From the NCBI GenBank assembly GCA_030637365.1, contig DAOWGR010000023.1:1-36894 (forward strand): DNA of 36,894 bases, in the 5' to 3' direction. Under the pieces are notes generated by a model, which saw nothing but the letters and a program-made list of their open reading frames with translations, was not told where the DNA came from and did no database searches. The stretch's first letter is position 1. Each line of letters opens with the position of its first letter. The stretch is from Elusimicrobiota bacterium (GTDB taxonomy: Bacteria > Elusimicrobiota > Elusimicrobia > Elusimicrobiales > UBA9959). This document shows positions 6,134 to 36,894 of this stretch, piece after piece. The position numbers and the translations under genes were made by a program.

Positions 6134-6150
6134 AAAGAACTTAACAGATT

Positions 6151-8094: not shown

Positions 8095-8175
8095 GAGTCC
8101 GTTTAAACAGTTTTTATTACCGTGTATGCTTTTTTTCTCCATATAATAACCGGAAGACACATTTGGAGTATTAAT

Positions 8176-10059
8176 ATGACAATCAAGGAAAACTTAATTT
8201 TTAAATTCTTTTTCGTATTTTTTATTTCATTGCGATTGGCCGCGGGACAACCGGCGATTGCTTTGGATAAAGATGATGAATTCGGCGATTATAGAGAAAA
8301 AATAATAAATACGGCCAGAGAGCTTGGCATTGGCGTTTATGAAGATTTGTCCGTTGAATTTGCCGGCGAAGAAATTATTTTTTCAGAACCTGTAAATTTC
8401 GGACAAACTTTTGAAGTTTCGCCGTCGGCATTCGCATACGCGGATGAAAACAATCAGAACGGCTTTGGCAAAGGGCAAGAATTTAAAATCGGTCAAACGG
8501 CGATTAAGCGTTATGATGTTTCCGCCGGGCGCGATATGCCAAAAACAGCGGTTGAAGAGAAGGCCGGAGAATCGTCTTTTTTTCGGGGATTTTTCACCGG
8601 AGTAAGAAATTTCTTTGGTTCAACTTTCAAAAAAAATAATCAAACAGATTCTCAGCGGACCGAGCAGCCTCAGATTCCAAAAAAGAAATCAAGTTCTTCT
8701 TTAGCCGATAAACTCACTGGAGGCATAGCTACTTTTTTTTACACTTTTAAAGCCAAAATAATGGATTCCGGCTTTTTTCCGTGGACCATTGCCGCTCCGT
8801 CATTTGATGAAATATCCAAGAATGCGATAGCTATGGTAAAAAATTCCGGTTTTAAGCCAAGAAAAGTCGGACAGACCTCTTTGCTTAAAGAAGAAGGCTT
8901 TATAAAAGAATTGGAAACATTGACGGGAGCTAAATTTACCGAAGGAAATACAGTGAAGTTTCTAATAGACGGCAAAGCATCTTTTGCTATAAGGGACAAG
9001 CTTATAAGAGAGGCGAAAAAAAGCGTTTATATCGGCACATTTATCTTTCACGATGATATTACCGGCAATGAAACCGCCGATATGCTTGTAGCCAAGAAGA
9101 ATGAGGGAGTTGATGTTAAAATAATTCTTGATCATAAAATTGCTTATATGCTCGGAACAAAAGTTATTAAACGCATGCAAAAAGCCGGAATAGAGATTAT
9201 ACGCCATATGGATTCAAAAAGAACAGGGGATTATTGGCATGTAAAATTGCTGATAGTGGATGATAAATACGCTGTTGTCGGCGGCATAAATTATGGCGAT
9301 TCATATTCTCATAAGGACCCCGACGGTCAAAAATGGCGAGATACCGATGTTTTTTATTCGGGTTTGGCCGTAATGGAGACAAAGAAAATTTTCGCCGAAA
9401 ATTGGAACAGTAAGGTGATGGAAAGTGGGCTTGATTTTGGAAAAGTGGATATGGATATTTCGCCAAGCCCGGGTTTCGATAAAGGTTCGGCTCGCATAGC
9501 GGTGGTTTTCCAAAATCCTCCCAATGCTTCCTCGTCACCGGTGCTTTTTAGTATCCTGAAGGCTATTTATGGCGCCACTGAGCGCGTTAATATTGAGAAT
9601 GCTTATTTTATCGCAATTCCGGCTGTCAGTCAGGCGATATTGGATGCCAAAGCGCGAGGCGTCAAAGTCAATATCCTGACCAATTCCGAGAAAACCATAG
9701 ACGGTGATTGTGACTATATGGCGAATTCCATAATCAAAGGACTTATACCGTTGATTCATGAAGGCATCAATGTATACTTAAAAAAAGGCAATACGCTTCA
9801 CAGTAAATTTATGACTGTTGACGGCGTTTTCTGCTCTATCGGTTCATATAATTTGCGCCCCAGGAGTGAAAGATACGATACGGAACTGAATGTCAATGTT
9901 ATAGACCATATATCCGTTAGGAAACTTGAGGAGGTGTTTGCTAAAGATATATCTGAAGCGACAAAAATAAATTCGGTGGAAGATCTTAATTATAAGCCGA
10001 CTTGGCTGTCAAAAATAATGGAAAAATATTTTTACGCCATGCTTTCGCCGGAAAAATAA
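8176..10059 (+). CDS. Secreted PLD-superfamily protein, copy 3
   Basis: ATG at 8176 is preceded by GGAG (8165-8168) and aligns with the starts of copies 1 and 2. HKD motifs WHVKLLIVDDKYAVVGGINY and LHSKFMTVDGVFCSIGSYNL. The ORF-track start at 8122 is an upstream extension. Confidence 0.85.
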   Translation: MTIKENLIFKFFFVFFISLRLAAGQPAIALDKDDEFGDYREKIINTARELGIGVYEDLSVEFAGEEIIFSEPVNFGQTFEVSPSAFAYADENNQNGFGKGQEFKIGQTAIKRYDVSAGRDMPKTAVEEKAGESSFFRGFFTGVRNFFGSTFKKNNQTDSQRTEQPQIPKKKSSSSLADKLTGGIATFFYTFKAKIMDSGFFPWTIAAPSFDEISKNAIAMVKNSGFKPRKVGQTSLLKEEGFIKELETLTGAKFTEGNTVKFLIDGKASFAIRDKLIREAKKSVYIGTFIFHDDITGNETADMLVAKKNEGVDVKIILDHKIAYMLGTKVIKRMQKAGIEIIRHMDSKRTGDYWHVKLLIVDDKYAVVGGINYGDSYSHKDPDGQKWRDTDVFYSGLAVMETKKIFAENWNSKVMESGLDFGKVDMDISPSPGFDKGSARIAVVFQNPPNASSSPVLFSILKAIYGATERVNIENAYFIAIPAVSQAILDAKARGVKVNILTNSEKTIDGDCDYMANSIIKGLIPLIHEGINVYLKKGNTLHSKFMTVDGVFCSIGSYNLRPRSERYDTELNVNVIDHISVRKLEEVFAKDISEATKINSVEDLNYKPTWLSKIMEKYFYAMLSPEK

Positions 10060-10114
10060 GAGGCGCGGAAGTTCGAAAGCGCGAAATACCGGATAGAAAC
10101 GGAATTATATAAAT

Positions 10115-10150
10115 AAATCGCAAATCCCCGGGATTTGCGATTTGTTTTTT
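10115..10150 (+). terminator. Rho-independent terminator after the PLD triplet
   Basis: AAATCGCAAATCCC / GGGATTTGCGATTT is a near-perfect palindrome followed by G-TTTTTT. Confidence 0.75.
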
Positions 10151-10329
10151 GCAGTGATTTCGTTCTGTTATTTAATTGTTATTTGCAATTTATACATTGA
10201 TGTTTTTTATTTTTATAACTTGCATATTGTTTTTTTGATTTGTCGTTTGCCGCTATTTACTAATTACTGTTTACCGGTTGCTGGTTGTTCTTGTGGCAAT
10301 ATTCCCCTAAAAAACATAAAATATACTCT

Positions 10330-10881
10330 ATGCATGGCGATATAAAAGAAGTGCTTATAACCGAAGAACAAATTAAGGTTCGCGTCAAAGAGCTTGCTGA
10401 AAAAATATCCAAAGACTATAAAGGGCGATGCCCGGTTTTTGTCGGTGTTTTAAAAGGATGCGTGTTTTTTCTTTCAGACCTTTTAAAACACATAACGATT
10501 GATTGCAATGTTGATTTTATGGGTCTTTCTTCTTACTCCGGCACGCAATCAACGGGAATTGTAAGAACAGTCTTGGATTTAAAAGAAAGCATAGAGGATA
10601 AGGATGTTATAATCGTGGAGGATATAGTGGATTCAGGCCTTTCAATGGAATATCTTCTTCATAATTTTAAGAGCAGGCGTCCGAGGTCGGTTAAAATATG
10701 CACTATGCTTGATAAGCCCTCCGCCAGAAAGGTGCGTGTTCCGGTTAAATACGCGGGCTTTGAAATACCCGAGAAATTTGTAGTCGGTTATGGTTTGGAT
10801 TTTAATGAACTTTACCGTAATTTGCCGTATATCGGAGTGATTAAAAAATCAGCTGTTGAAAAGGATAAGAAATGCCGCTAA
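10330..10881 (+). CDS. hpt: Hypoxanthine(-guanine) phosphoribosyltransferase
   Basis: MHGDIKEVLITEEQIKVRVKELAEKIS..., PRPP-binding VIIVEDIVDSGLSM, C-terminal VVGYGLDFNELYRNLPYIGV. The conserved hpt-ftsH pairing is present. Confidence 0.9.
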   Translation: MHGDIKEVLITEEQIKVRVKELAEKISKDYKGRCPVFVGVLKGCVFFLSDLLKHITIDCNVDFMGLSSYSGTQSTGIVRTVLDLKESIEDKDVIIVEDIVDSGLSMEYLLHNFKSRRPRSVKICTMLDKPSARKVRVPVKYAGFEIPEKFVVGYGLDFNELYRNLPYIGVIKKSAVEKDKKCR

Positions 10882-12707
10882 AAAAAATCTCAAATAAAAT
10901 GCCCTTGAATAAAAATACCAGACAAATCCTCTTTTGGATTATTACTTTTCTTCTTTTTATCACGCTTTATCATAACTTTAAAAATCTGGAAACCGTGAAA
11001 CAAATTCCTTATTCGGAATTCAAACAAAAGTTGAAATCCAAAAAAATAATAAAAGTGGTTGTTTCGCCGAATTTGATAAAGGGAGAGATGCAGGATAGCG
11101 GCATGGATGTTAAATTCAGAACTTTGCCTCTTCCCGATTCAAAACTCATTGAAGATATGGAAGCGAGCGGAATTAAATCCTTTTCCGGCGAACCGGATAG
11201 AAGCTGGGTTATAAGTTTGCTTTTAAATGTGGGCTGGATTTTTCTATTTATTTTTTTGTGGTGGTTTTTATTCTTGAGACAATCTCAAATGGGCGGCAAG
11301 GGGGCCATGAGTTTTGGGCGTTCGCGCGCGAAAGAACAGGATTTAAAAAAACAAAAAATCACTTTTAAAGATGTTGCCGGTTGTGATGAGACCAAAGAAG
11401 AATTGAGCGATATCGTGGATTATCTTAAAAATCCAAAAAAATACAAACAATTGGGCGGCGTTTTGCCCAAGGGCATGCTCTTATTCGGCCCTCCGGGAAC
11501 GGGCAAAACTTTGCTTGCCAGAGCGGTCGCCGGAGAAGCTCAAGTTCCGTTTTATACTTCGTCAGGTTCCGAGTTTGTTGAGATGTTTGTCGGCGTGGGG
11601 GCTTCTCGCGTCAGGGATTTGTTTGAAAAAGCCAAAAAAAACGCTCCCGCCATTATATTTGTTGACGAACTGGATGCGGTAGGCAGGCGCAGATTTGCCG
11701 GCATTGGCGGCGGACATGATGAAAGAGAGCAGACCTTAAATCAGCTTTTGGTTGAGCTTGACGGTTTTGAGGGCAATGAAAATGTTATTTTAATAGGCGC
11801 GACCAACAGGCCGGATGTTCTTGATCCCGCGTTGCTTAGGCCGGGGCGTTTTGACAGGCGCATAAATGTTCCCGCGCCGGATATCATGGGCAGAGAGGAA
11901 ATTCTTAAGGTTCACGCTAAAAAAATAAAACTTTCTCCCGATATTGATCTTGGAATCATAGCAAGAAGAACTCCCGGTTTTGTCGGAGCCGATTTGGCCA
12001 ATATTATAAACGAATCAGCCATATTCGCGGCCAGAAAAAACAAAAAATTCGTCGAGATGGAAGATATTGAGGAGTCCATAGAAAGAGTGATAGCGGGTCC
12101 GCAGAGAAAAACAAGAATAATATCCGAGAAAGAGAGAAAGGTCATAGCTTTTCACGAAGCGGGACATGCTCTGATTGCCAAACTTTTGCCTCATACCGAT
12201 CCCGTGCATAAAATTTCCATAGTTCCCAGAGGGCCCGCTTTAGGCTATACCCTTCAATTGCCTGTTGAAGATAAGTATTTAACCACCAAAAGCGAGATTA
12301 TCAATAAGCTTTCAATTCTTTTGGGCGGCAGAGCCGCCGAAGAAATAGTATTTGATGAAATTACAACCGGAGCGCAGGATGATTTGTCCAAGGTGACCAA
12401 TTATGCGCAAAAGATGGTTCTTGAATTCGGGATGAGTGAAAAAATAGGCCTTATCACTTTAAGAAAAGATGAATCTGAAGTATTTCTGGGAAGGGATATT
12501 GCCAAACAGCCGGGTTATTCCAATGAAATGGCTAAGAATGTTGATGATGAGATTAAACGAATAGTCAGCGAGTGTTATGTGAAAGCCAAGGAAATGTTGA
12601 CTGATGAAAGACATTTGCTAAATTCTCTGGCCGAAAAGCTTTTGGAAAAAGAAATTCTGGAATCAGATGAAATTGATTTAATAGTTAATGGCAATGCCGC
12701 CGCATAG
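10872..12707 (+). CDS. ftsH: ATP-dependent zinc metalloprotease FtsH
   Basis: Two TM segments, Walker A GPPGTGKT, Walker [31 protein letters not shown], Zn site HEAGHA. Confidence 0.95.
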
Positions 12708-12745
12708 GGCGCAGTTGCTTACCGCCGAATTCAAGGATTATATCA

Positions 12746-13522
12746 ATGTATATACAATACGCGAAAAATATCATAGATATATTTGTCGTTTATTGTATCG
12801 TTTATCACCTGATACTTCTTATTAAGGGCACCAGAGCCATGCAAGTAATATGGGGAGTTTTTATTCTTGCCATTATTACAGCCATAGCCAAGCTTTTAAA
12901 TTTATCCGCCACAATGTGGATGATGCAGCAATTTTGGCTTGCCGGTATTTTTCTTTTAATCGTGGTGTTTCAGCCTGAAATACGCTCCGCCCTCGCCAAT
13001 ATAGGAGCTAATCCTCTGGGAAGAATTTTAATGCCTCAGGAATATAAATTTATAAAAGAGATGATGAGCGCTTTAAAGACTGCCTCGGATGACAGAACGG
13101 GAATGATTATCGTTCTTGAGCAGGATATGGGGCTTAAAGACATTATGGATACGGGCATTATGATAAGCGGAGAAGTAAGCAAAGAGCTTTTGCTCACAAT
13201 ATTTTTTAATAAGACTCAACTGCATGACGGAGCGGTAATAATAAGCAAAAACCGTTTAATCGCGGCCGGATGCATATTGCCTTTAACCGAACAAAAAGAG
13301 CTTTCAATGATGCTTGGCATGAGGCATAGAGCGGCGCTCGGCCTCAGCGAAATTTGTGATTCCATTATAATTGTGGTGTCCGAGGAGACGGGACAAATTT
13401 CTTTGGCGAGAAACGGCAAGCTTCAGCAATCGGTGGATATTGATAAGCTTGAGAATATGCTTTATACTCTTTACCGTTCAAAATCTGAAAAAACCTTGCT
13501 TAGAAGGCAGTCAAGACAATGA
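12746..13522 (+). CDS. cdaA: Diadenylate cyclase CdaA (DisA_N domain, three N-terminal TM helices)
   Basis: LHDGAVIISKNRLIAAGCILPL, GMRHRAALGLSE and DSIIIVVSEETGQISLA are DAC-domain signatures. Confidence 0.9.
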   Translation: MYIQYAKNIIDIFVVYCIVYHLILLIKGTRAMQVIWGVFILAIITAIAKLLNLSATMWMMQQFWLAGIFLLIVVFQPEIRSALANIGANPLGRILMPQEYKFIKEMMSALKTASDDRTGMIIVLEQDMGLKDIMDTGIMISGEVSKELLLTIFFNKTQLHDGAVIISKNRLIAAGCILPLTEQKELSMMLGMRHRAALGLSEICDSIIIVVSEETGQISLARNGKLQQSVDIDKLENMLYTLYRSKSEKTLLRRQSRQ

Positions 13523-13617
13523 ATCTTCCTGAATTGATAACCAAAAACTGGCAGATTAAAATTCTATCGCTCATAATAGCCGTTCTTATTTGGTATTTTA
13601 AGCTCAGCGGTGTTTAA
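13519..13617 (+). pseudogene. cdaR: 32-codon stub resembling the N-terminal membrane anchor of CdaR/YbbR
   Basis: ATGA overlap with the cdaA stop. MNLPELITKNWQIKILSLIIAVLIWYFKLSGV* resembles the typical YbbR-family N-terminus (xNxxLKxLSLxxAxxLW). No YbbR repeat domains follow. The next gene starts at 13624. Confidence 0.45.
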
Positions 13618-13623
13618 GCGAAT

Positions 13624-15501
13624 ATGGTTAAAAAAGTGCGTAAAAAAAACATCATTTTTTTTGGAATATTTTTATTGATTGGAGTTTTGGGCGCAAATGC
13701 CGCGGATAGTCCCACTATCCGCTTATCGACCGAAGGGCGATCAAAAAAAACAAGCGGCGCCAATAGAGCCGCAAGCGGGTGGCGGGACAGTTTTAATCCT
13801 GCCGGCTGGCAAACCAATAATAATTTTCCTTTAATAGGCTCGCCAAAAGCCAAAAAAGGCGGAACCATGCGTTTTTTTTGGCGCAGTTATCCCGCCACAT
13901 TAAGAACAAACGGCCCTAACGCGAATTTTTTTACCATTCAGGAAATTCAAAGCGTGGTTTATGAATCTTTAATTGATATTCATCCCGAGACAATGGAATA
14001 TATTCCCGGCCTTGCCGATTATTGGCGCGTGTCCCCAGATAAAAGAAAATTTTCATTTCATATAAATCCGAAAGCCGCATGGGCGGACGGAAGTCCGGTT
14101 ACGGCCGAGGATATTGTGGCCACTTGGGAATTTCGGACTCGCGCCGATATAAAAGATCCATATTCGGTTATGATGTGGGCCGATAATTTTGAAAAACCCA
14201 TAGCTGAAAGCGAATATGTTGTTTCGGTTAAAACAAAAAAACTTAATTGGCGTTTGTTTTTATATTTCGGCAGAATGGATATATATTCCGCCAAAGAAAT
14301 GAAAAAACTTGCCGGAAAAGAATATCTTAGGGACTATAATTGGAAGATGCAAATGGGTTCGGGTCCTTATGAATTAAAATCCGAAAACATTAAAAAAGGG
14401 CATTCTTTAATTATTACAAGGCGTGAGGATTATTGGGCCGCCAATGAGCGAAGAAATATCGGCGTTAATAATTTTGACGCGGTATCCTGGATTGTAATTT
14501 TGGATGAAGAATTGGCGTTTGAAAAATTTAAAAAAGGGGAGATTGATTTTTATTATGTTTCAAGGGCGCAGAGATGGGCAAATGAATGTGATTTTGACAA
14601 AATAAAAAAAGGCTGGATACAAAAGCGCAAAATTTATACTCAAGCTCCGGAAAGTTTTTTGGGTTTTGCTTTCAATATGAGAAAGCCGCCTTTTGATAAT
14701 CGCGACGTGAGAAAGGCTTTTTCTTTTCTTCTAAATCGCGAAAAGCTTTTAGACAAGCTTTTTTTTAATGAATACGCCTATATAGACACTTATTTTCCCG
14801 GCGGAGAATGGGGAAATCCAAATAATCCGAAAGTGCGACATAATCCGAGAAGAGCCGCCAAACTTCTTAAAAAGGCGGGATGGAAGAACAGGAATAAAGA
14901 GGGCTGGCTTATTAAAGACGGAAAAATTTTTGAACTGACGCTTGAATACGGGTTTAATGGCTGGACCAAGATTCATAAGGTTATCAAAGAAGATATGAAA
15001 AAAGCCGGAATTAAGCTTAATCTCAAATTGATTGATCCCAGAACCTTGATGAAGAAGGTAAATGAACGCAATTTTACCTTGCATTATAAACTATGGGGCG
15101 GCTTCCTGTTTCCAAATCCCGCCGTTATGTGGTCGTCTGAGCTTGCCGATGAAAAATATAATAATAATTTACCCGGATTTAGAAATGAGAAAGTTGACGC
15201 GCTATGCGCGAAATATGACCGCGCGTTTGACAGAGAAGAGCAGAAAAAAATCATAAAGAAGATTGATGCCGCGATTTTTAGGGAATATCCTTATGCGCTT
15301 TCATGGTATACCGATTTTAATCGTATTCTTTATGCCAATAAATTCGGTCATCCGAAAACATATTTTTCAAAGATTGGAGATTTTAGAGACATAAAAACAC
15401 TTTGGTGGCTGGACGCGCCCAAAGAAAAAGCTTTGTCTGAGGCTGTAAAAGAAAATAAGAGTTTGCCGGTTGGAAAAATCATCCAAAAGCCATGGAAATA
15501 G
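13624..15501 (+). CDS. yejA: ABC transporter substrate-binding protein, family 5, YejA-like, copy 1 (carries palindromic-element insert after signal peptide)
   Basis: Signal peptide IIFFGIFLLIGVLGANA, about 600 aa, paralogue of 15760-17541. Lies in an operon with YejB/YejE-like permeases. Confidence 0.85.
   Translation: MVKKVRKKNIIFFGIFLLIGVLGANAADSPTIRLSTEGRSKKTSGANRAASGWRDSFNPAGWQTNNNFPLIGSPKAKKGGTMRFFWRSYPATLRTNGPNANFFTIQEIQSVVYESLIDIHPETMEYIPGLADYWRVSPDKRKFSFHINPKAAWADGSPVTAEDIVATWEFRTRADIKDPYSVMMWADNFEKPIAESEYVVSVKTKKLNWRLFLYFGRMDIYSAKEMKKLAGKEYLRDYNWKMQMGSGPYELKSENIKKGHSLIITRREDYWAANERRNIGVNNFDAVSWIVILDEELAFEKFKKGEIDFYYVSRAQRWANECDFDKIKKGWIQKRKIYTQAPESFLGFAFNMRKPPFDNRDVRKAFSFLLNREKLLDKLFFNEYAYIDTYFPGGEWGNPNNPKVRHNPRRAAKLLKKAGWKNRNKEGWLIKDGKIFELTLEYGFNGWTKIHKVIKEDMKKAGIKLNLKLIDPRTLMKKVNERNFTLHYKLWGGFLFPNPAVMWSSELADEKYNNNLPGFRNEKVDALCAKYDRAFDREEQKKIIKKIDAAIFREYPYALSWYTDFNRILYANKFGHPKTYFSKIGDFRDIKTLWWLDAPKEKALSEAVKENKSLPVGKIIQKPWK
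13710..13787 (+). repeat. 78-nt palindromic element (copy B), translated in frame within yejA-like copy 1
   Basis: Arms TCCCACTATCCGCTT (13710-13724) and AAGCGGGTGGCGGGA (13773-13787): 12 Watson-Crick pairs, 2 G-U pairs, 1 mismatch. It has the same A8 run (13743-13750) and the same internal order as copy A. It is absent from the paralogue at 15760. Confidence 0.85.
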
Positions 15502-15526
15502 TTCCTTTAAAAACGGAACTATTTCC
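15494..15526 (+). promoter_or_regulatory. Stop-codon-spanning hairpin after yejA copy 1 (no T-run)
   Basis: GGAAATAGTTCC (15494-15505) and GGAACTATTTCC (15515-15526) form a perfect 12-bp stem with a 9-nt loop. The stem includes the TAG stop. Confidence 0.5.
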
Positions 15527-15759
15527 AAGTCACCAGTCACCATGTCTCCAGAATTTGGTAATTAGTAAATGGAAGTTTCGTTAATTAACATCTGTCCTTT
15601 GTTTCTGTTTTTTTGTTCCGTATCGCTGCCACGCTGTAGCTCTGCCGCGCTGTTTCTGTCTCTTTGTAATAAGTTTCTATATTTGATAGTTTATTAACAG
15701 TATTGGGAATTACCAAAAATTTGAGTTCTTATTTTTTTAAAACGAGGTGAAAAACGCGT

Positions 15760-17541
15760 ATGAAAAATATTGTTTTAGCAGGAATTTTTTTACTGTTTGG
15801 GGCATTTGGTTCAAACGCTTTGGCGGATGTTTTTAATCCCGCCGGATGGGACAGCAATAATGATTTTCCTCTGATAGGTTCGCCAAAAGCCCAGAAGGGC
15901 GGCGAGCTTCGTTATTACTGGCAAAGTTTTCCTCCCACATTAAGAACTGAGGGGCCAAATTCAAATTTTGTGCCCAATAATGAGGTTCAAAGTTTGATGT
16001 ATGAATCATTGGTAGGTCTTCATCCCACAACATTGGAATATATTCCGGGACTTGCAAATTACTGGAAGATATCCGCTGACAAAAGAAAGTTTTCATTTCA
16101 TGTAAATCCAAAAGCCGCATGGGCTGACGGCAGCCCCGTTACCGCCGAGGATGTGGTCGCCACTTGGGAATTTCGTATTCGCGAAGATATAAAAGATCCG
16201 TATTCGGTTATGATGTGGGGCGGAAGTTTTGAAAAGCCCGTTGCTGAAAGCAAATATGTGGTTTCGGTAAAGACAAAAGAACTTAATTGGCGTTTATTTT
16301 TATATTTCGGCGGTATGGCGATATATCCGGCTAAAGAAATGAAAGTTCTTACAGGAGAGAAATATCTTAAGGATTATAACTGGAAAATGCAAATGGGTTC
16401 GGGGCCTTATGAAGTAAAACCTGAAAATATTACAAAGGAACATTCTCTGGTTGTTACAAGGCGCGAGGATTATTGGGCCGTCAATGAGCGAAGAAATATC
16501 GGCATTAATAATTTTGATAAAATATCATGGAAAGTTATTTTAGATGAAGAATTGGCTTTTGAGAAATTTAAAAAAGGCGAGATTGATTATTATTATGTCA
16601 ATAAATCACAGAGATGGATTGAGGAATGCGATTTTGACAAAATAAAAAAAGGCTGGGTTCAAAAGAGAAAAATTTATACACAAGCGCCGAAAGGTTTTGG
16701 CGGTTTTGTTTTTAATATGAGAAAGCCGCCTTTTAACAATCGCAATGTCAGAAAGGCCTTTTCTTTTCTTTTTAACCGCGAAAGACTTATAGATAAGCTT
16801 TTTTTTAATGAATATGATTATATAGACAGCTATTATCCCGGTGGAGATTGGGGTAATTCCGATAATCCGAAAATTCGTTATAATCCGCGCCGAGCCGCAA
16901 GGCTTCTTAAAAGAGCCGGTTGGACAAATAGAAACAAAGACGGCTGGCTTGTCAATAAAGACGGAGAAATTTTTGAATTGACTCTTGAATATGGTCAGCA
17001 AGGGTCTACCAGAATTCATAAGGTTATCAAAGAGGAGATAGAAAAAGCGGGAATTAAATTTAATCTTAAATTGATTGATTCCAGAACTTTAATGAAAAAA
17101 GTCAGTGAACGCAAGTTTACTATTCATTTTCAAAGTTGGAGAGCTACATTGTTTCCAAATCCGAAGAGTTCGTGGAATTCAGAGCTTGCCGGAGCGCACA
17201 CAAATAATCTTCCGGGTTTTAAGAATAAAGGAGTGGATGAATTGTGTAAAAAATATAATGTTACATTTGACAGGGCGGAGCAGAAAAAGATTATAGGGGA
17301 AATAGACGGCATAATTTTTAGAGTTCATCCGTATGCTCTTGGATGGTATGGTAATAATAGTCGTGTTCTTTATGAGAATAAATTCGGACATCCTAAAGAG
17401 TATTTTTCAAAAATTGGCGATTACAATGATATAAAAACTTTTTGGTGGTATGATAGGGCAAAAGAAAAAGCTTTATCTGAAGCTATAAAGAGTAATAAAA
17501 GTTTGCCTATCGGAAAAACCATCCAAAAACCGTGGAAATAA
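15760..17541 (+). CDS. yejA: ABC transporter substrate-binding protein, family 5, YejA-like, copy 2
   Basis: Signal peptide IVLAGIFLLFGAFGSNALA. Collinear with copy 1 and highly similar throughout the mature domain. Confidence 0.9.
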   Translation: MKNIVLAGIFLLFGAFGSNALADVFNPAGWDSNNDFPLIGSPKAQKGGELRYYWQSFPPTLRTEGPNSNFVPNNEVQSLMYESLVGLHPTTLEYIPGLANYWKISADKRKFSFHVNPKAAWADGSPVTAEDVVATWEFRIREDIKDPYSVMMWGGSFEKPVAESKYVVSVKTKELNWRLFLYFGGMAIYPAKEMKVLTGEKYLKDYNWKMQMGSGPYEVKPENITKEHSLVVTRREDYWAVNERRNIGINNFDKISWKVILDEELAFEKFKKGEIDYYYVNKSQRWIEECDFDKIKKGWVQKRKIYTQAPKGFGGFVFNMRKPPFNNRNVRKAFSFLFNRERLIDKLFFNEYDYIDSYYPGGDWGNSDNPKIRYNPRRAARLLKRAGWTNRNKDGWLVNKDGEIFELTLEYGQQGSTRIHKVIKEEIEKAGIKFNLKLIDSRTLMKKVSERKFTIHFQSWRATLFPNPKSSWNSELAGAHTNNLPGFKNKGVDELCKKYNVTFDRAEQKKIIGEIDGIIFRVHPYALGWYGNNSRVLYENKFGHPKEYFSKIGDYNDIKTFWWYDRAKEKALSEAIKSNKSLPIGKTIQKPWK

Positions 17542-21396: not shown

Positions 21397-22386
21397 ATGA
21401 ATGAAGAAAACATAATTGATATTTCAAATTTAAAAGTTCATTTTCCGATACATGGCGGGCTTTTTTTTAAAAAGATAGGCGATGTTAAAGCTGTTGACGG
21501 AGTGTCATTCGCTTTGAAAGAGGGGGAAACCTTGGGCCTTGTGGGAGAATCGGGCTGTGGAAAGACAACGGTCGGAAAAGCTCTGATAAATCTTGTTAAA
21601 TCCACTTCCGGCGAAATAATGTTCGCCAATAAAAAACAAGAAAAAGTAAATATAGCGAATTTGAGCCGCTCGGAAATGCGTCCGTACCGGGCGGATATTC
21701 AAATGATTTTTCAGGACCCTTATTCATCTTTAAATCCTCGCATGTCGGTTGGCGCCATTATAGAAGAGCCGCTTCTAATACATAATAAGAAGCTTAAAAA
21801 CAAAGAGAGAAAGGAAAGAGTGGCGTGGCTGCTTGAGAAAGTCGGTTTGCGCGGCGAGCAAGCCACCAGATATCCTCATGAATTTTCGGGAGGGCAGCGC
21901 CAGCGAGTGGGAGTTGCCAGAGCGCTCGCGACTAATCCCCGGTTCATAATAGCCGACGAGCCGGTTTCCGCTTTGGATGTTTCCATTCAGGCGCAGGTAA
22001 TAAATCTTCTTCAGGATTTGCAGGATGAATTTAAGCTGACTTATCTTTTTATCGCGCATGACCTTTCCGTAGTTGAGCATATTTCGGACAGAATCGCGGT
22101 AATGTATCTTGGAAATATGGTTGAAATCGGGACAAGCCGAGAAATAAATGAAAACCCTCTTCACCCGTATTCCAAAGCTCTTTTATCCGCCGTTCCTCAT
22201 CCCGATCCCTCCATGCAAAAACGGGAGAGAATAATTCTTACCGGAGATGTTCCAAGTCCATTGGCCAAGCCGTCAGGCTGCGGATTTAGGACAAGATGCC
22301 CTATTGCAAAAGAAGAATGCTCCGAGCGTATTCCCGAACTAAAAGAAAAATCCCCCGGCCATTTCGTCGCCTGCCCGTTTGTATAA
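21397..22386 (+). CDS. Peptide ABC transporter ATP-binding protein (OppF/DppF-like; second half-equivalent of YejF)
   Basis: Walker A GESGCGKTT, signature FSGGQRQR, Walker B FIIADEPVSALD. Confidence 0.9.
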   Translation: MNEENIIDISNLKVHFPIHGGLFFKKIGDVKAVDGVSFALKEGETLGLVGESGCGKTTVGKALINLVKSTSGEIMFANKKQEKVNIANLSRSEMRPYRADIQMIFQDPYSSLNPRMSVGAIIEEPLLIHNKKLKNKERKERVAWLLEKVGLRGEQATRYPHEFSGGQRQRVGVARALATNPRFIIADEPVSALDVSIQAQVINLLQDLQDEFKLTYLFIAHDLSVVEHISDRIAVMYLGNMVEIGTSREINENPLHPYSKALLSAVPHPDPSMQKRERIILTGDVPSPLAKPSGCGFRTRCPIAKEECSERIPELKEKSPGHFVACPFV

Positions 22387-31363: not shown

Positions 31364-32056
31364 ATGGTTAAATATTCGGCTTGTATTGCGGTGGCGCTGG
31401 CGATAGTATATGGAATAATACTTTCATATCCGGGAATGTTTTTTAAGTATAGTTATGAGTATAAAAACATGACCGTTTACAGCCATGAAACCCTAAAAGG
31501 CGATATTGACGGTGTTTGGGATGCCGTTCATGAGAAGATGGTTTTATCCGAATTTTTTAATCCCGATTTTAAATTTTGTTTTTATATTGTAAAAGGTTTA
31601 AAGGAATACTCTTTTTTAACCGCCTTTAAAGGAAAAAATTATTCTTATCTCTGTCCGTTAAGCGGCAAGATTTTTTTGGTTTCGGCCGATTTTGAAAAAA
31701 ACGAAGCAAATTGTAAAAATTGCGATGAAAAAAGCGTCAGGGATTTGGATATTATCATGGCGAGCGCGGCAATGAAGAGTATTCTCCGGCAAAATTCCGA
31801 ATTTTTAAAATATATATTCATTAGTGAATGGAAAAAAGAAGGCTATGGGGAGTATATCGCGGGTGAAAGCGGATATTTTGAATTTTCGGAAATATGCGGA
31901 AACGAAACGGATAATCTGTGGCTGGAATTTTATAAGCGCCATCTTGCCATGAAAATGCTGATGATTGAGGATAAATATTCATTTGCCGCCGTTCTTGAAA
32001 AAAATGTCAGTTATGAAGGCATGCTAAAGCGTCTTAAAGAAAGGCATTGCAGATAG
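31364..32056 (+). CDS. Hypothetical membrane-anchored protein (one N-terminal TM), paralogue starts at 36796
   Basis: N-terminal TM ACIAVALAIVYGIILSYPGMFF. ATG is preceded by GGGGGAAG. No family recognised. Confidence 0.6.
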   Translation: MVKYSACIAVALAIVYGIILSYPGMFFKYSYEYKNMTVYSHETLKGDIDGVWDAVHEKMVLSEFFNPDFKFCFYIVKGLKEYSFLTAFKGKNYSYLCPLSGKIFLVSADFEKNEANCKNCDEKSVRDLDIIMASAAMKSILRQNSEFLKYIFISEWKKEGYGEYIAGESGYFEFSEICGNETDNLWLEFYKRHLAMKMLMIEDKYSFAAVLEKNVSYEGMLKRLKERHCR

Positions 32057-32219: not shown

Positions 32220-34343
32220 CTATTTCACTATCTTGCCGGCATAAATCCATTCGCTTTTTTTCGTTTTGCCTATTATAACCCAAACCTCAAGCCAGATATG
32301 ATTGGTTTTTCGCGGAAGAATGTCATCTGAAATGGATGTGCCAAGACTTAATTTTACATTGTCATTATAACTGATAAATGGAGCCCAAGCTTTTTTTAAT
32401 TTGGTTTTATACAGGTGCCCGCCTCTGTCATAGCTTGAGTAAACCTGCATAAATATTCTTTGAACTGATCCTAATGTTGTCCTAAGGTTATGAACAGCTT
32501 TTGGATCTATGTATTTCCATGCTAAGGTTATTTCATAATAATGTTCGCCTTTTTTAAGCGTTGCCCTGACATTTTCAAGAAGTGTGACTCTTTCCCAAAA
32601 GTTACCCTCGTTAAGTAAATCAAATTTTTTAAAATCAATGCCAGGCAGATTGGCGGGGAAGACCTTTCCGCTCAGAGAGGATGTTTCCTCTTTTTCTTTT
32701 TTTGATTTATCTTCATTAATTTCAGTTGTTTGTTTTTCTTCCGCTTCCAATCTTTTTCGCTTATTTTCAGCAATTTTTTCTTGAAATTGTTTGTCCCATC
32801 TTTCTTTTTGTTGTTTGTCAATTTCAATTTGTTCCGCTTTAAAAATTTTCTCTTGCTCTTTCCAGAGGTTCTTTTTACAATCGGTAAAACGATTTTGGGA
32901 GTTTGGCGGAATCGTTATGCCAAGTTTTTTAAATTCATCAAGGCAGGATAAAATGGAATTCCATTCTCCTGTCCATCGTGACAGTTCATCTGAGCGGAAA
33001 GGCTCCAAAGGTATTTGTCCGGCAAACTCAATTCGTTTGAGGATCTCTCTTTCTTTTTCAATTAGATTAAGCAGACGATCTGTTTCAGCCTTATTCGCTT
33101 TATATTTTCTTGTTTTTTCGTTTCTTTCTCTGCCTTTGGCAAGTCTGCGTTCGCAACCATCAAGAGTGGTAAGATCGCTTGTTGACAGGGAAATTTTTTC
33201 TTCTTTAAACGCGGCGAGGCATTTTTTAAGGGCTTCTTTTTCCTCATTTACTTGAGTTTCAGTTAAATTCATTTCAGCTGCCAAAGCTCTGGCATCTTCC
33301 AATTCACCTTCGCAAACGATATAGCTGTTTTTTACTTTGGTTGAAACGGGATAGCCGATTTTATTGAGTTCGTTAATGCATTTCTCAATTCGTTCATTAA
33401 ATTTATCTTTTCCGCTTTTCTTATTTTTTATTGCCAAATCCAAAGCTTTTAAGCAAGCTTCTTCGGAGGAAAAAGTTGATGGCGGATGAAGGCTTGCGTT
33501 TCTAAACTGAGACAAACAGGTTTGAACATTGCCCCTTTCACCGAGATTTTTTTCAGCTTTTGCGGTTGATCGTCTCGCCCATTGTTTTGTTTCGCGCTTC
33601 TTTTGAGCTTTTTCCGCTTTTTCTTTAGCAAGCCATTTTTCATCTCGTTTTCTAATTCTTTCGCGTTCCTCTTCAGCTGTCGGCTGAAAACTTGAAAGCC
33701 ATTTGGCATGTCTTGCTTTTTTTTCTTTTTCAGTTAGTTTTCGAGGCGCGGTTTTTTTATTTTTGGATGAGGTCTTGTCGGATTTTCCGGTTAAAGTAGA
33801 ATCGCATTTTTCAAAAACCGGTGAAAAAGAATGTCTGGAATATCCTTTATTAAGCAAATTATAACAACAGTTTTGAAAAGCTTTGCTTTGCAGGAGGTTT
33901 CCTCCTCGCTTAACTTTAATGGATCTTTGGCATGCCTCGTAAGATTTTTTTGCCGAAGAATTTATTGAGCCGTATTCGCAAAAGAGCCGCCGAAGACATT
34001 GTTCATGAGAGGCGCTTCCGGAAGATTTTTTATTCGCTTTTTTTTTGTTTAGAATTTTATTGCAATTCCACCTTCCCAATGCTATTTTTTTATGAGAATA
34101 ACCTTGTTTCAAAAGTTTTCGATGGCAATTTTGCCGGTCCTGCGGCAGCGGTTTGCGTTTGCGATACGCTCTAAGAGCGGTTAGGCAATTGGCATAATAT
34201 TCATCGCATTGAATATCCCAATATCCATATTCCACTACCAGAGTTTCTAAACATGTTTTATGTTTAGGAGTGAAAGAGAGGCTTATATCGGGCAATAAAA
34301 CGCAAATCAAACCCATTGTCAGAATAGTTAAATTTTTTTTCAT
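32220..34343 (-). CDS. Large secreted protein: repeated Cys-containing modules, Lys/Glu-rich coiled-coil segments, distinct C-terminal 170-aa domain
   Basis: Signal peptide MKKNLTILTMGLICVLLPDISLSF. Recurrent CL..(L/F)...C...C...L.K.GY...C modules. The start codon abuts the upstream stop (TAA-ATG on the minus strand at 34346-34341). No family recognised. Confidence 0.75.
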   Translation of the reverse strand: MKKNLTILTMGLICVLLPDISLSFTPKHKTCLETLVVEYGYWDIQCDEYYANCLTALRAYRKRKPLPQDRQNCHRKLLKQGYSHKKIALGRWNCNKILNKKKANKKSSGSASHEQCLRRLFCEYGSINSSAKKSYEACQRSIKVKRGGNLLQSKAFQNCCYNLLNKGYSRHSFSPVFEKCDSTLTGKSDKTSSKNKKTAPRKLTEKEKKARHAKWLSSFQPTAEEERERIRKRDEKWLAKEKAEKAQKKRETKQWARRSTAKAEKNLGERGNVQTCLSQFRNASLHPPSTFSSEEACLKALDLAIKNKKSGKDKFNERIEKCINELNKIGYPVSTKVKNSYIVCEGELEDARALAAEMNLTETQVNEEKEALKKCLAAFKEEKISLSTSDLTTLDGCERRLAKGRERNEKTRKYKANKAETDRLLNLIEKEREILKRIEFAGQIPLEPFRSDELSRWTGEWNSILSCLDEFKKLGITIPPNSQNRFTDCKKNLWKEQEKIFKAEQIEIDKQQKERWDKQFQEKIAENKRKRLEAEEKQTTEINEDKSKKEKEETSSLSGKVFPANLPGIDFKKFDLLNEGNFWERVTLLENVRATLKKGEHYYEITLAWKYIDPKAVHNLRTTLGSVQRIFMQVYSSYDRGGHLYKTKLKKAWAPFISYNDNVKLSLGTSISDDILPRKTNHIWLEVWVIIGKTKKSEWIYAGKIVK

Positions 34344-36674
34344 TTATTTGCTTTCGTTTAAAATAACATATTGAGTGAAAGTGTCTTGAGCCAGTCTGTT
34401 ATATTTATTGATGGCGGCTTTATCGGCGATATGTTCTTTTTGAGAGGCATAATAAACGGAAAGCAGAGAATATGTCCGGCCGAGATAAAAATGAGCCAGA
34501 GCCAAATCGGGGTTTTTTGCCGCAGCGCCGCTTATGATTTCAGCCGCTTTGAGAAGGCCTTTTTCATTATAGCGTTTAACCATCAGATTCACGATTCCCG
34601 AGTATGACCGTTTATAATATTCCGCCAATTTTTTGCCTTTTTTCAAAGCATAAGAGTCAAAATTCTCTTTGCTCGGCCGTTCTCCTGATAAATCAAAAGT
34701 CTTTAAATCCGATACCGCTCGCGCTTGAAGTGAAAAAGATTCGCCCACGGCGCTAAGAGTCGCCTTGAAACCGAGGTTCATGGCCTTTCTTTGGGAGAGA
34801 TATCCTTGGAGCAGTGAAAGATAAGGATTGTTTGAATCAAAAGTTTTATTGTCTTCAAGTTTATTTGACCATTTATCATAGGTGGAATTTTTAGCCGCGC
34901 TTTTTTTTGTGAGATAAGCAAAAATTTCAGAGAAAGTCCTTTCGCTCATAATTGATTTGGCGAAAGGTTTTAATTCGGAGTTTTCCGGTATTTTATCGTA
35001 AGTGTTTTTAATCCGATCGGACATTTCTCTAAGTTCTTTTGGAAATTTAAGATGGCGCTGTTCGGCCGCCGCCCTTTCAATCAATTGCCCCGCGTATTCT
35101 TTAGCCAGCAGAGTATTTTCATCCGCGCCGGCTTTATTAAGATGATTAAGAGCGTTTTGAGCAAGATCCGGTTTTACGGTTATTAAACTCAAATAAAAAA
35201 TGCCGAGCGCTCTTTCACCGAGTTCGGGTGAAAGTCTCAATACCTCCTTATATTCGGCAAACGCGCTGTTTAAAAGTTCGTTTACGGTTGATAAATCTAT
35301 TTTTTCTTTTTTATTTTTTGGGGAGTATGTCCATTTTGGAAAGCTCAAGCCCGTGCCTATAAAATGTTCGTTTGCTTCAGTTATTTGATTCCGGAGAACA
35401 TTCAGGGCGAGCAGGCGATAAATATTTCCAAGTTTAAGATGATAATGGGGATTTTCTTTATCCGTTTCAACGGCTTTTTCAAAAGTGGAAATAATTTCCT
35501 CTGAAATTGGCAAGATATTGAAATGGCGGCTTGTTTGAATCAATTGCCGATATTCGGCGAACATAAGCGAACGGCTTTTTTTGATGTTTTTTTCAACTAT
35601 GCGGCCGGCTTTCCACGAGGCTTTTCCTTCGGGAATATTTTCAGGCAAAGGAAGCGCGGCAAACTTTAAAGAATCCTCAACCGCTTTTTTAAGGGCGCCG
35701 GCATTTTCCCAATCAAAATCCGCGGGCAATTCCAATTCTTTCGGCTTTTGCCCGGTTGAGGTTACAAAGCGCTGTCTGTCTCTAATAGCGGGAGAAGTTT
35801 TTTTTGCTTCTTCAACGCTTTCCATATATTTAAGGGCTTTAATAAATTGTGGCGGATGGGTGACGCTTTGTATTTTTTCTTGAGCCTTGCGATAAGATGT
35901 CAGAGCTTCATCCAGACGCTTATAAAACATTTCCAAAAGCATGGCGTTTCCAAGCCGATATAAATCGGCCCCGCTTTGAGCGGCGCCAAGTTCAGTGATT
36001 TTTTTGCGGATATTTGAAAGTTTGATATTAATATAAAATTTTTGGGCGAGCGGAGAATTTAAGATTCTATTGAAATTTTCTTTTTTTAGCGTTTGATTAT
36101 TTTGAGATAATTCTGTTTTTTTTGGAGCATCGGCAGTCTTTTCAGCCGGAGAAGACGGAATGAACAGAGCTTTTTGATATTCTTTGAAATTATCTTTGGA
36201 TAAACGGATTATGGGGGGCAAAAATAAGCCGTCATTGGTTGTTATGTCCCTCAATGTTAAAGCCGCCTGCCGATATAATATGGGAGGCAGCATGGTTGTT
36301 TCCACGGTGACGATATTTTCGGCGAATTGGCTGTCTATGCTGTACATGCCGCCGGAGATATATTGTGATATCCTGTCTGAAAGCCCGATTCTCATGTCTG
36401 CGGGTTTGTAAAGTTTTTTGCGGATATCGGAATAAATATTGAGAGCTTGTTTGAATTGTTTTTTATAAAGCTTTTTTTTGGCGCCGCTCTTTTTTATTTT
36501 AAGTCCTTCATTGTAAAACTTATTTGCTTCCGCCAGTTTTTGTTTAAAATCCGCTGTGTCTATAAGTCTTTTCTCAGAGCCTTTTCCTTGAGCTTGGATG
36601 GAATTTGCGGCTGAGAAAGCAAATACGGCAATTAGCGTCAATGAAAACAATTTTTTTAATTTGTAAATATTCAT
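34344..36674 (-). CDS. Large secreted TPR-like/all-helical protein
   Basis: Signal peptide LFSLTLIAVFAFSAANSIQA. Several TPR-like helices (AFAEYKEVLRLSPE, LALAHFYLGRTYSLL, ALTSYRKAQEK). ATG is preceded by a G8 run (GGGGGGGG). No specific family recognised. Confidence 0.75.
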   Translation of the reverse strand: MNIYKLKKLFSLTLIAVFAFSAANSIQAQGKGSEKRLIDTADFKQKLAEANKFYNEGLKIKKSGAKKKLYKKQFKQALNIYSDIRKKLYKPADMRIGLSDRISQYISGGMYSIDSQFAENIVTVETTMLPPILYRQAALTLRDITTNDGLFLPPIIRLSKDNFKEYQKALFIPSSPAEKTADAPKKTELSQNNQTLKKENFNRILNSPLAQKFYINIKLSNIRKKITELGAAQSGADLYRLGNAMLLEMFYKRLDEALTSYRKAQEKIQSVTHPPQFIKALKYMESVEEAKKTSPAIRDRQRFVTSTGQKPKELELPADFDWENAGALKKAVEDSLKFAALPLPENIPEGKASWKAGRIVEKNIKKSRSLMFAEYRQLIQTSRHFNILPISEEIISTFEKAVETDKENPHYHLKLGNIYRLLALNVLRNQITEANEHFIGTGLSFPKWTYSPKNKKEKIDLSTVNELLNSAFAEYKEVLRLSPELGERALGIFYLSLITVKPDLAQNALNHLNKAGADENTLLAKEYAGQLIERAAAEQRHLKFPKELREMSDRIKNTYDKIPENSELKPFAKSIMSERTFSEIFAYLTKKSAAKNSTYDKWSNKLEDNKTFDSNNPYLSLLQGYLSQRKAMNLGFKATLSAVGESFSLQARAVSDLKTFDLSGERPSKENFDSYALKKGKKLAEYYKRSYSGIVNLMVKRYNEKGLLKAAEIISGAAAKNPDLALAHFYLGRTYSLLSVYYASQKEHIADKAAINKYNRLAQDTFTQYVILNESK

Positions 36675-36795
36675 ACCCCCCCCCTAACTTTGTTCTTAAG
36701 CGCGTTATAGAAGCATATTATACTTATTTAGCTAAATAATCGGCGGAGAACACTGCTTATTATATTTTATTTACAAATGTGTTGTAACACAAAGG

Positions 36796-36894
36796 TTGAA
36801 AATTTTGGATTGTATTATGATGGCGCCGGCGATAGTATATGGAATAATGCGTTCATATACGGGAATGTTTTTTAAGAATAGTTATGAGTATAAA
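36796..36894 (+). CDS. Paralogue of 31364-32056, 3' end cut by window edge (start TTG 36796 or ATG 36817)
   Basis: ...DCIMMAPAIVYGIMRSYTGMFFKNSYEYK compares with ...ACIAVALAIVYGIILSYPGMFFKYSYEYK. Nucleotide similarity is high over the last 85 or so nt of the window. Confidence 0.6.
   Translation, partial: MKILDCIMMAPAIVYGIMRSYTGMFFKNSYEYK

Follow-up and report, generated by a model that had tools for sequence, protein, structure and literature searches.

On a contig from an uncultured member of Elusimicrobiota, two large genes adjoin without a single intervening nucleotide, which raises the question of whether their products, both apparently exported and neither of any described family, act together and in what role. 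The stretch analyzed here (hereafter the window) comprises positions 1–36,894 of contig DAOWGR010000023.1 (assembly GCA_030637365.1; order Elusimicrobiales, lineage UBA9959). It carries on its minus strand a gene for a 776-residue protein (P1), followed by one for a 707-residue protein (P2). Together, they constitute a very rare, lineage-restricted accessory cassette of a few uncultured Elusimicrobia. The reading favored here, to which we assign a probability of about one half, is that of an accessory envelope operon in which P1 would be a scaffold and P2 a stalk with a binding head, the two acting as a complex; for a specific ligand of P2, confidence is much lower.

Conservation and linkage of the gene pair

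A HMMER-scored six-frame search of 401 Elusimicrobiota genomes detected P1 and P2 together in the same three genomes, all of one genus (G000, G174, and G349). Both are absent from the fourth member of the genus (G128) and from all other genomes sampled, where the remaining matches to P1 involve single motifs of the tetratricopeptide repeat (TPR) type (E > 3e-4). A word-seeded search of 5.8 billion proteins matched solely proteins from metagenome-assembled genomes of Elusimicrobia, i.e., P0001 (99% identity), P0002 (72%), and P0003 (partial) for P1 and P0004 (53%) for P2; the P2 search missed known orthologs, as its candidate list was taken up by low-complexity words. Scanning metagenome contigs yielded no relatives of P1, and the scan of genome contigs for P2 returned only the contig of G174. 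A fourth full-length P2 (P0005; 655 residues, 40% identity) is encoded on contig L033, whose GC content (0.47–0.50) differs from that of the window (about 0.39); directly upstream lie the C-terminal 247 residues of a P1 homolog (44% identity, E 6e-61).

The adjacency and order of the two genes are retained in all four lineages (the window, G174, G349, and L033), which differ down to 40–44% identity in the most distant one. The first-pass annotation had proposed co-occurrence and synteny as a check on the pair; both genes occur together in every genome that has either of them, their order is constant, and no genome with P1 or P2 alone was found. For P1, identity among orthologs amounts to 72–84% inside the genus and falls to 44% for L033, and the P2 orthologs P0004, P0012, and P0005 are 63%, 61%, and 42% identical over aligned columns (53% for P0004 and 40% for P0005 in local BLASTP alignments). 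Pairwise Nei–Gojobori estimates against the orthologs, at a synonymous divergence (dS) of about 0.6–1.0, give ratios of nonsynonymous to synonymous substitution rates (dN/dS) of 0.13–0.24 for P1 and 0.26–0.32 for P2; both are real genes under purifying selection.

The stop codon of P1 directly abuts the start codon of P2 (...AGC AAA TAA ATG AAA...), as had been noted initially. The junction GAnnnnAAATAAATGAnAAA and its flanks are identical in the three species represented by the window, G174, and G349 (dS of about 0.6–1.0), and its persistence at a dS of about 0.9–1.0 indicates that it is maintained and not a product of chance. Upstream of P2 there are only weak purine-rich tracts, whereas P1 is preceded by strong G-run sites. 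Short or zero spacing is associated with termination–reinitiation, and gene pairs of this kind are enriched in subunits of heteromeric complexes; a spacing of about 20 nt nearly abolished coupling in published experiments (PMC10666635). The proximity of stop and start that characterizes translationally coupled pairs is present in the window, G174, and G349 (0 nt) but not in L033, where P1 ends with TGA and P2 follows after a 26-nt gap with a Shine–Dalgarno site (GGGGAAG), so that this lineage must use its own ribosome-binding site for P2. The joining of stop and start in three of the four lineages favors termination–reinitiation, by which P2 would be made in step with P1. Of the original proposal of coupled translation and a stoichiometric complex, the zero-spacing junction thus stands in three lineages, coupling is not universal to the pair, and a complex would be a step beyond the junction itself. 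A read-through fusion of the two in-frame reading frames was considered and rejected, because P2 has a signal peptide in all lineages and the spacer in L033 places the genes in different frames.

The spacer in L033, which shows that coupling is not required, and the occurrence of the C-terminal domain of P2 elsewhere without a P1 neighbor are what would be expected if P1 and P2 were independent envelope proteins that share an operon without physical contact. This explanation is nevertheless unlikely: the order and adjacency of the genes persist in each lineage and across three genomic contexts, G128 has neither of the two, whether through loss or original absence, and the zero-spacing junction is conserved even at a dS of about 1. 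An operon whose products work together is preferred.

Properties of the two proteins

In both P1 and P2, the only hydrophobic segment that approaches transmembrane grade is a single one at the N-terminus. The elements of a Sec signal peptide (a basic n-region, a hydrophobic core, and small residues at the cleavage site) are recognizable in both by inspection and hydropathy only, and on these grounds, the annotated signal peptides and lack of transmembrane segments are supported. In P2, a hydrophobic core of 13 residues is followed by P-D. Scans of both proteins and four orthologs against Pfam, NCBIfam, PHROGs, and PADLOC detected no family above cut-off; PADLOC gave no hits at all, and matches to PHROGs had E values of at least 0.014 and fell in low-complexity helices. 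Profile searches of the PDB with the sequences of P1 and P2 recovered a single consensus TPR (CTPR) repeat, in agreement with the earlier view that neither protein can be assigned to a family.

P1 contains no cysteine. Its matches to Pfam remain below the cut-offs for TPR_17 (22.1 versus 24.4 bits) and TPR_11 (17.5 versus 26.8 bits) and concern one site (residues 397–421); the ortholog P0002 reaches 23.0 bits for TPR_11 (cut-off 26.8). The PDB match is to designed CTPR proteins and covers one repeat (residues 387–413, E 1.9e-4). Further motifs of the A..Y.LG..Y type can be seen by eye at residues 236–268, 468–515, and 708–740, but a strict TPR regular expression found no match in P1, and the tandem 34-residue repeats above gathering thresholds that define the Pfam TPR clan were not detected. 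An AlphaFold2 model from a five-row alignment is all helix according to DSSP, with a very low mean predicted local distance difference test (pLDDT) score of 37.6; it is inadequate for comparing the fold with an alpha-solenoid, and only the tendency in secondary structure is taken from it. The all-helical nature of P1 claimed in the first-pass annotation is thus supported by the model, whereas its TPR repeats amount to weak, sub-threshold Pfam matches; judged by its sequence, P1 resembles TPR proteins, but its membership in a TPR family cannot be demonstrated.

P2 is modular. Sixteen of its 20 cysteines are arranged in eight C-x20-22-C units of the form C-[LIHY]-x2-[LF]...C, which are grouped into four four-cysteine modules. 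The eight cysteines of units 5–8 and the motifs IGYP and IP-E-FR-DE--RW are invariant in the four orthologs. Three regions (residues 205–266, 394–435, and 490–555) are more than 50% charged and only 11–21% hydrophobic; their predicted helices of 37–44 residues have many opposite charges at i/i+4, as is typical of stable single helices or weak coiled coils. The modularity described at the outset, with N-terminal cysteine modules followed by a charged stretch, applies with a different layout, since the cysteine units extend to residue 489 and alternate with the charged helices. Their even spacing on helical hairpins suggests that the cysteine pairs are disulfide staples; a DsbA-like Thioredoxin_4 gene (E about 1e-24) is present in all four genomes of the genus (G000, G174, G349, and G128).

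In the AlphaFold2 model of P2, helices extend to residue 546 and beta structure occupies residues 560–707 (mean pLDDT 53.1, with moderate confidence for the C-terminal sandwich); the models of both proteins were made from shallow alignments of 4–5 rows that predate the more diverse sequences. The distinct, beta-rich C-terminal domain that had been suspected is borne out by nine predicted strands and one helix within residues 556–707. When 1.84 billion representative proteins were searched exhaustively with HMMER, only five clusters with this domain were retrieved: P0004, the form of G349 (fragment P0006 and full-length P0012), P0005, P0007 (205 residues), and P0008 (140 residues). In P0007 and P0008, a signal peptide is followed by nothing but the C-terminal domain of P2, which identifies the domain as an independent exported module. 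Its end, W-[IL]-Y-A-G-K-[IV]-x-K/R, is almost invariant in all forms, including those that stand alone. By its sequence relationships, the domain appears to be a new, very rare family.

Foldseek comparisons of the P2 model with the PDB recovered generic immunoglobulin (Ig)-like sandwiches (factor XIII sandwich, Asf1, nanobodies, ester-bond adhesin repeats, and CBM21), the best with an E value of 5e-3 and none at E ≤ 1e-3; their TM-scores of 0.35–0.56 are relative to small targets, and the pLDDT of the domain is 50–76. Comparison with BFVD yielded uncharacterized phage proteins with a best E value of 1.2e-3, a non-significant match from a low-confidence model. The stand-alone domains are encoded on metagenome contigs (L034, 3435–4052; L035, 276–698); one of the genes adjoins genes for a deoxyhypusine-synthase-like protein and an ornithine/arginine decarboxylase.

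An optional cassette in different genomic contexts

In the window, L001 (G174), and L006 (G349), the element AAATAAGTATAATATG (AATAGGTATAATAT in G349) is located 40–43 nt upstream of P1. The upstream DNA around its TATAAT is unrelated among the members of the genus, indicating that the cassette carries its own promoter-like site; the promoter region originally attributed to the pair is thus supported as a promoter-like element that is conserved across unrelated upstream contexts.

The neighborhood itself differs from what the first-pass annotation had described. Contig L002, from a near-identical strain, extends beyond the end of the window, where the next gene upstream of P1 is a co-directional gene for a resistance–nodulation–division (RND) transporter of the AcrB type at a distance of 292 nt; in G349, a co-directional RND gene is likewise found upstream of P1 (124-nt gap). 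To describe the pair as inverted, with a divergent promoter, is therefore too simple. Bracketing by paralogous genes is not supported either, because one of the brackets, at positions 36799–36894, is a dead stub without a start codon. The stub is 88% identical to positions 31370–31465, the 5' end of a gene for a 230-residue membrane protein on the other side of the pair (tblastn-type match, E 2.5e-7). Its full sequence in L002 (in the region 1124–1320) shows that the start codon and ribosome-binding site are lost and that there is a large internal deletion.

G128 offers an empty site for comparison. Here, the RND gene (89% identical protein) and the gene for the 230-residue protein are arranged tail to tail, 8 nt apart (L032 [G128:C14], 4315–4322), and the GDPD gene found next in the window follows them there as well. 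Compared with G128, an additional block of 4.93 kb is present in the lineage of the window, from position 32056 to about 36988, which comprises P2, P1, the promoter region, and the stub. The empty site in a sister species shows that the pair is optional. The direct copies of the 230-residue protein gene that flank the block would be consistent with a circle that integrated through one crossover within this gene, after which one of the copies decayed; loss of the block from G128 is an equally good explanation. The pair has a different location in G174, where it is divergent from genes for a nucleotidyltransferase and a GT4 glycosyltransferase and close to genes typical of mobile islands (a methyltransferase, AAA_14/DUF4143, and DUF6036). 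Across its lineages, the pair occupies three different neighborhoods. A functional link to the RND pump or to the 230-residue membrane protein was considered and rejected, because these two genes adjoin in G128, which lacks the pair, and because the pair is located elsewhere in G174 and L033.

The presence–absence polymorphism next to a duplicated gene fragment and the three genomic contexts recall the cargo of a phage or another mobile element, such as a pair of proteins for receptor binding, surface exclusion, or modification of the host envelope, and the best fold matches in BFVD are to phage proteins. This origin is nonetheless very improbable. There is no match to PHROGs, the 4.9-kb block and its immediate neighborhood contain no gene for an integrase or transposase and no phage gene, the GC content of the block (0.37–0.42) is near that of its flanks, and the matches in BFVD lack significance.

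The accessory status of the cassette and the neighbors in G174, which resemble a mobile or defense island, would also suit a secreted effector similar to polymorphic toxins, in which P2 bears an exchangeable C-terminal "warhead" and P1 is its TPR chaperone or protector. The interior of the C-terminal domain and the first cysteine module of P2 in G349 indeed diverge faster than the core (ratios of nonsynonymous to synonymous differences per site [pN/pS] of 0.62–0.67 versus 0.16–0.35), with a domain identity of 35–36%. Yet the ends and many core positions of the domain are conserved in all forms, which argues for one diverging family and not for swapped warheads, and its predicted fold resembles a plain Ig-like sandwich. 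Moreover, scans of Pfam, NCBIfam, PHROGs, and PADLOC found no toxin, enzyme, or secretion-system domain, no small immunity-like gene is conserved downstream of the pair, and export of P1 sets it apart from the chaperones of effectors, which are cytoplasmic. An effector role is thus improbable, and the envelope operon remains the preferred reading.

Several other features of these loci deserve mention. The gene that follows the pair in L033 (2805–3095) encodes an N-terminus that matches Pfam CsgG (E 1.7e-4; 21.4 bits versus a cut-off of 20.8) before the contig ends. CsgG is the outer-membrane secretion channel of the curli type; if longer contigs bore this linkage out, a possible route for the export of P2 would be suggested. 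In G349, an additional gene for a 180-residue multi-pass membrane protein without a Pfam family (L017, 3454–3996) separates P2 from the 230-residue protein gene; it is absent from the window. The 630-nt intergenic region upstream of the pair in G174 contains a tandem repeat of about 60 nt (catagccttggccgtctgatggacatagtcctttgttacgacacccgg...; L001, 9425–9560). Elsewhere in the window (4232–17541), six co-directional open reading frames (ORFs) of about 590–650 residues each, which look like an array of paralogs, precede a gene for an oligopeptide-type ABC ATPase (21397–22386). The coordinates of the cassette and its flanks are compiled in Table 1.

Table 1. Positions of the P1–P2 cassette, its elements, and its flanking genes in the window (aa, amino acid residues).
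Feature	Position	Strand	Characteristics
P1 gene	34344-36674	-	776-aa ORF; product Cys-free, predicted to be exported and all-helical, with scattered TPR-like motifs
P1 signal peptide, about aa 1-29, MNIYKLKKLFSLTLIAVFAFSAANSIQAQ	36588-36674	-	Predicted by sequence inspection; orthologs share basic start and hydrophobic core
Best TPR-like motif of P1, aa 385-421	35412-35522	-	Sub-threshold Pfam TPR; PDB CTPR match
TAA/ATG junction of P1 and P2	34341-34346	-	0-nt spacing, same frame
P2 gene	32220-34343	-	707-aa ORF; modular product, predicted to be exported
P2 signal peptide, about aa 1-24	34272-34343	-	Sole hydrophobic window (Kyte–Doolittle, 19 residues, >1.6); equivalent in all orthologs
Variable N-terminal Cys modules of P2, aa 28-181	33801-34262	-	Present twice in the window and G349, once in G174 and L033 (alignments)
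First charged, E/K/R-rich helix region of P2, aa 200-270	33534-33746	-	55% charged, 11% hydrophobic; predicted helix aa 223-266, pLDDT up to 75
Conserved core of P2, aa 271-490	32874-33533	-	Four C-x21-22-C helical units, eight invariant Cys, IGYP, inserted charged helix aa 394-435
Last charged helix and linker of P2, aa 490-555	32679-32873	-	56% charged; 16 opposite-charge i/i+4 pairs; predicted helix aa 510-546
C-terminal beta-sandwich domain of P2, about 150 aa	32223-32678	-	Nine strands and one helix predicted, pLDDT 50-76; ends W-I-Y-A-G-K-I-V-K
-10-like TATAAT within AAATAAGTATAATATG	36717-36722	-	42 nt upstream of P1 ATG; conserved
Shine–Dalgarno-like G-run of P1 (nine G)	36676-36684	-	Equivalents GGGAGGG (L001) and GGGGGA (L006)
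Intact 230-aa membrane-protein gene	31364-32056	+	Convergent with P2; other edge of extra block
Decayed stub of 230-aa membrane-protein gene	36799-36894	+	Cut by window end; about 170 nt in all, without start codon, internal deletion

Proposed function of the cassette

The cassette would represent an accessory operon of an uncultured genus of Elusimicrobia that comprises its own promoter-like site and two genes, both of whose products would be exported across the inner membrane. P1 would form a TPR-like alpha-solenoid that serves as a docking or assembly scaffold. P2 would adopt an elongated "stalk and head" shape, in which cysteine-paired helical hairpins and rigid, long charged helices carry an Ig-like beta-sandwich; the sandwich would bind a ligand, and the two proteins would work as a complex. 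Because neither protein has an outer-membrane or secretion-system signal, a barrel, a lipobox, or a known sorting domain, the periplasm or cell envelope is the most likely location of P1 and P2.

Several observations weigh against this reading. The models are poor (pLDDT 37.6 for P1 and 53.1 for P2). The assignment of P1 to the TPR type falls under the Pfam cut-offs, and the localization of both proteins follows only from the absence of other signals. Coupling is dispensable in L033, given its 26-nt spacer with a Shine–Dalgarno sequence of its own, and the stand-alone domain proteins have no P1-like neighbor, so the domain does not need P1. No homolog of DsbB or VKOR was found in the four genomes of the genus; disulfide formation is thus not assured, and the cysteine pairs could serve another role.

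The novel extracytoplasmic system that the first-pass annotation had envisaged is accordingly possible, but the evidence reaches only as far as a rare, lineage-restricted accessory cassette of two exported proteins. A more ambitious version is doubtful: P1 and P2 might form a horizontally exchangeable envelope module, with P2 as a rigid stalk that spans the periplasm or reaches the surface, P1 as its dedicated TPR-like assembly partner, and the C-terminal domain as the founder of a new Ig-like binding family that other bacteria would also employ by itself, in the form of a small secreted protein.

Two protein families and one small exported domain would be new with this locus. It would also illustrate clearly how an envelope cassette can be optional in Elusimicrobiota, a phylum whose biology has, to our knowledge, hardly been studied by experiment. 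The wider significance is limited, since the families are restricted to a few uncultured lineages, and no long-standing question becomes testable.

Comparison with known systems

Like translationally coupled pairs (PMC10666635, PMC6728339), P1 and P2 are co-directional, and the stop codon of the first gene is followed at once by the start codon of the second. Such pairs usually overlap by 4 or 1 nt (ATGA, TGATG), whereas the spacing of P1 and P2 is exactly zero (TAAATG), and one lineage has a gap of 26 nt, a distance at which coupling had almost vanished in the cited experiments.

An exported, predicted all-helical protein that is encoded beside a likely partner and contains helix–turn–helix motifs of the A..F/Y.LG..Y type (e.g., NPHYHLKLGNIYRLLAL and NPDLALAHFYLGRTYSLL), P1 resembles the periplasmic TPR scaffolds. 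Periplasmic TPR or TPR-like scaffolds of diderm bacteria include NlpI, BamD, CpoB/YbgF, and the TPR parts of BcsC, PgaA, and PelB. P1 differs from them in that it lacks a lipobox, a porin domain, and a coiled-coil domain and scores under the Pfam TPR cut-off; it is 776 residues long with long non-repeat stretches and has no detectable homolog beyond the four lineages.

The second protein invites comparison with TolA, an envelope-spanning protein in which a long charged helix precedes a small C-terminal binding domain and whose TPR partner is CpoB. P2 likewise combines a long helical region rich in K, E, A, and R with a small globular C-terminal domain and has a possible TPR partner. By contrast, it begins with a short, cleavable-looking signal peptide (with a hydrophobic core of about 13 residues) instead of a transmembrane anchor, the fold predicted for its C-terminal domain is an all-beta sandwich and not of the alpha/beta type, and neither Pfam nor NCBIfam gave a match to the TolA/TonB families (TolA_III, TonB_C).

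Sel1-like-repeat (SLR) proteins, among them the cysteine-rich proteins of Helicobacter, consist of disulfide-bridged alpha/alpha repeats. P2 shares with them the export and the repeats of helical hairpins, and the cysteine pair of each repeat could staple the helices. Its cysteines are 20–22 residues apart, compared with the short spacing in SLRs, its disulfides are hypothetical, and charged helices of 40 residues are interspersed among its units, with a beta domain at the end; a search for Sel1 (PF08238) at E ≤ 1 found no match in P2 of the window, P0004, P0005, or P0012. Context on the cysteine-rich proteins of Helicobacter and other SLR proteins is provided by two publications (PMC3851747, PMC4597128).

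The likeness to TPR scaffolds, to the SLR and Helicobacter type, and to TolA is a resemblance of design and not a family assignment. In this sense, the parts of the cassette are familiar: a TPR-like solenoid, cysteine-paired helical hairpins, charged single helices, and an Ig-like sandwich.

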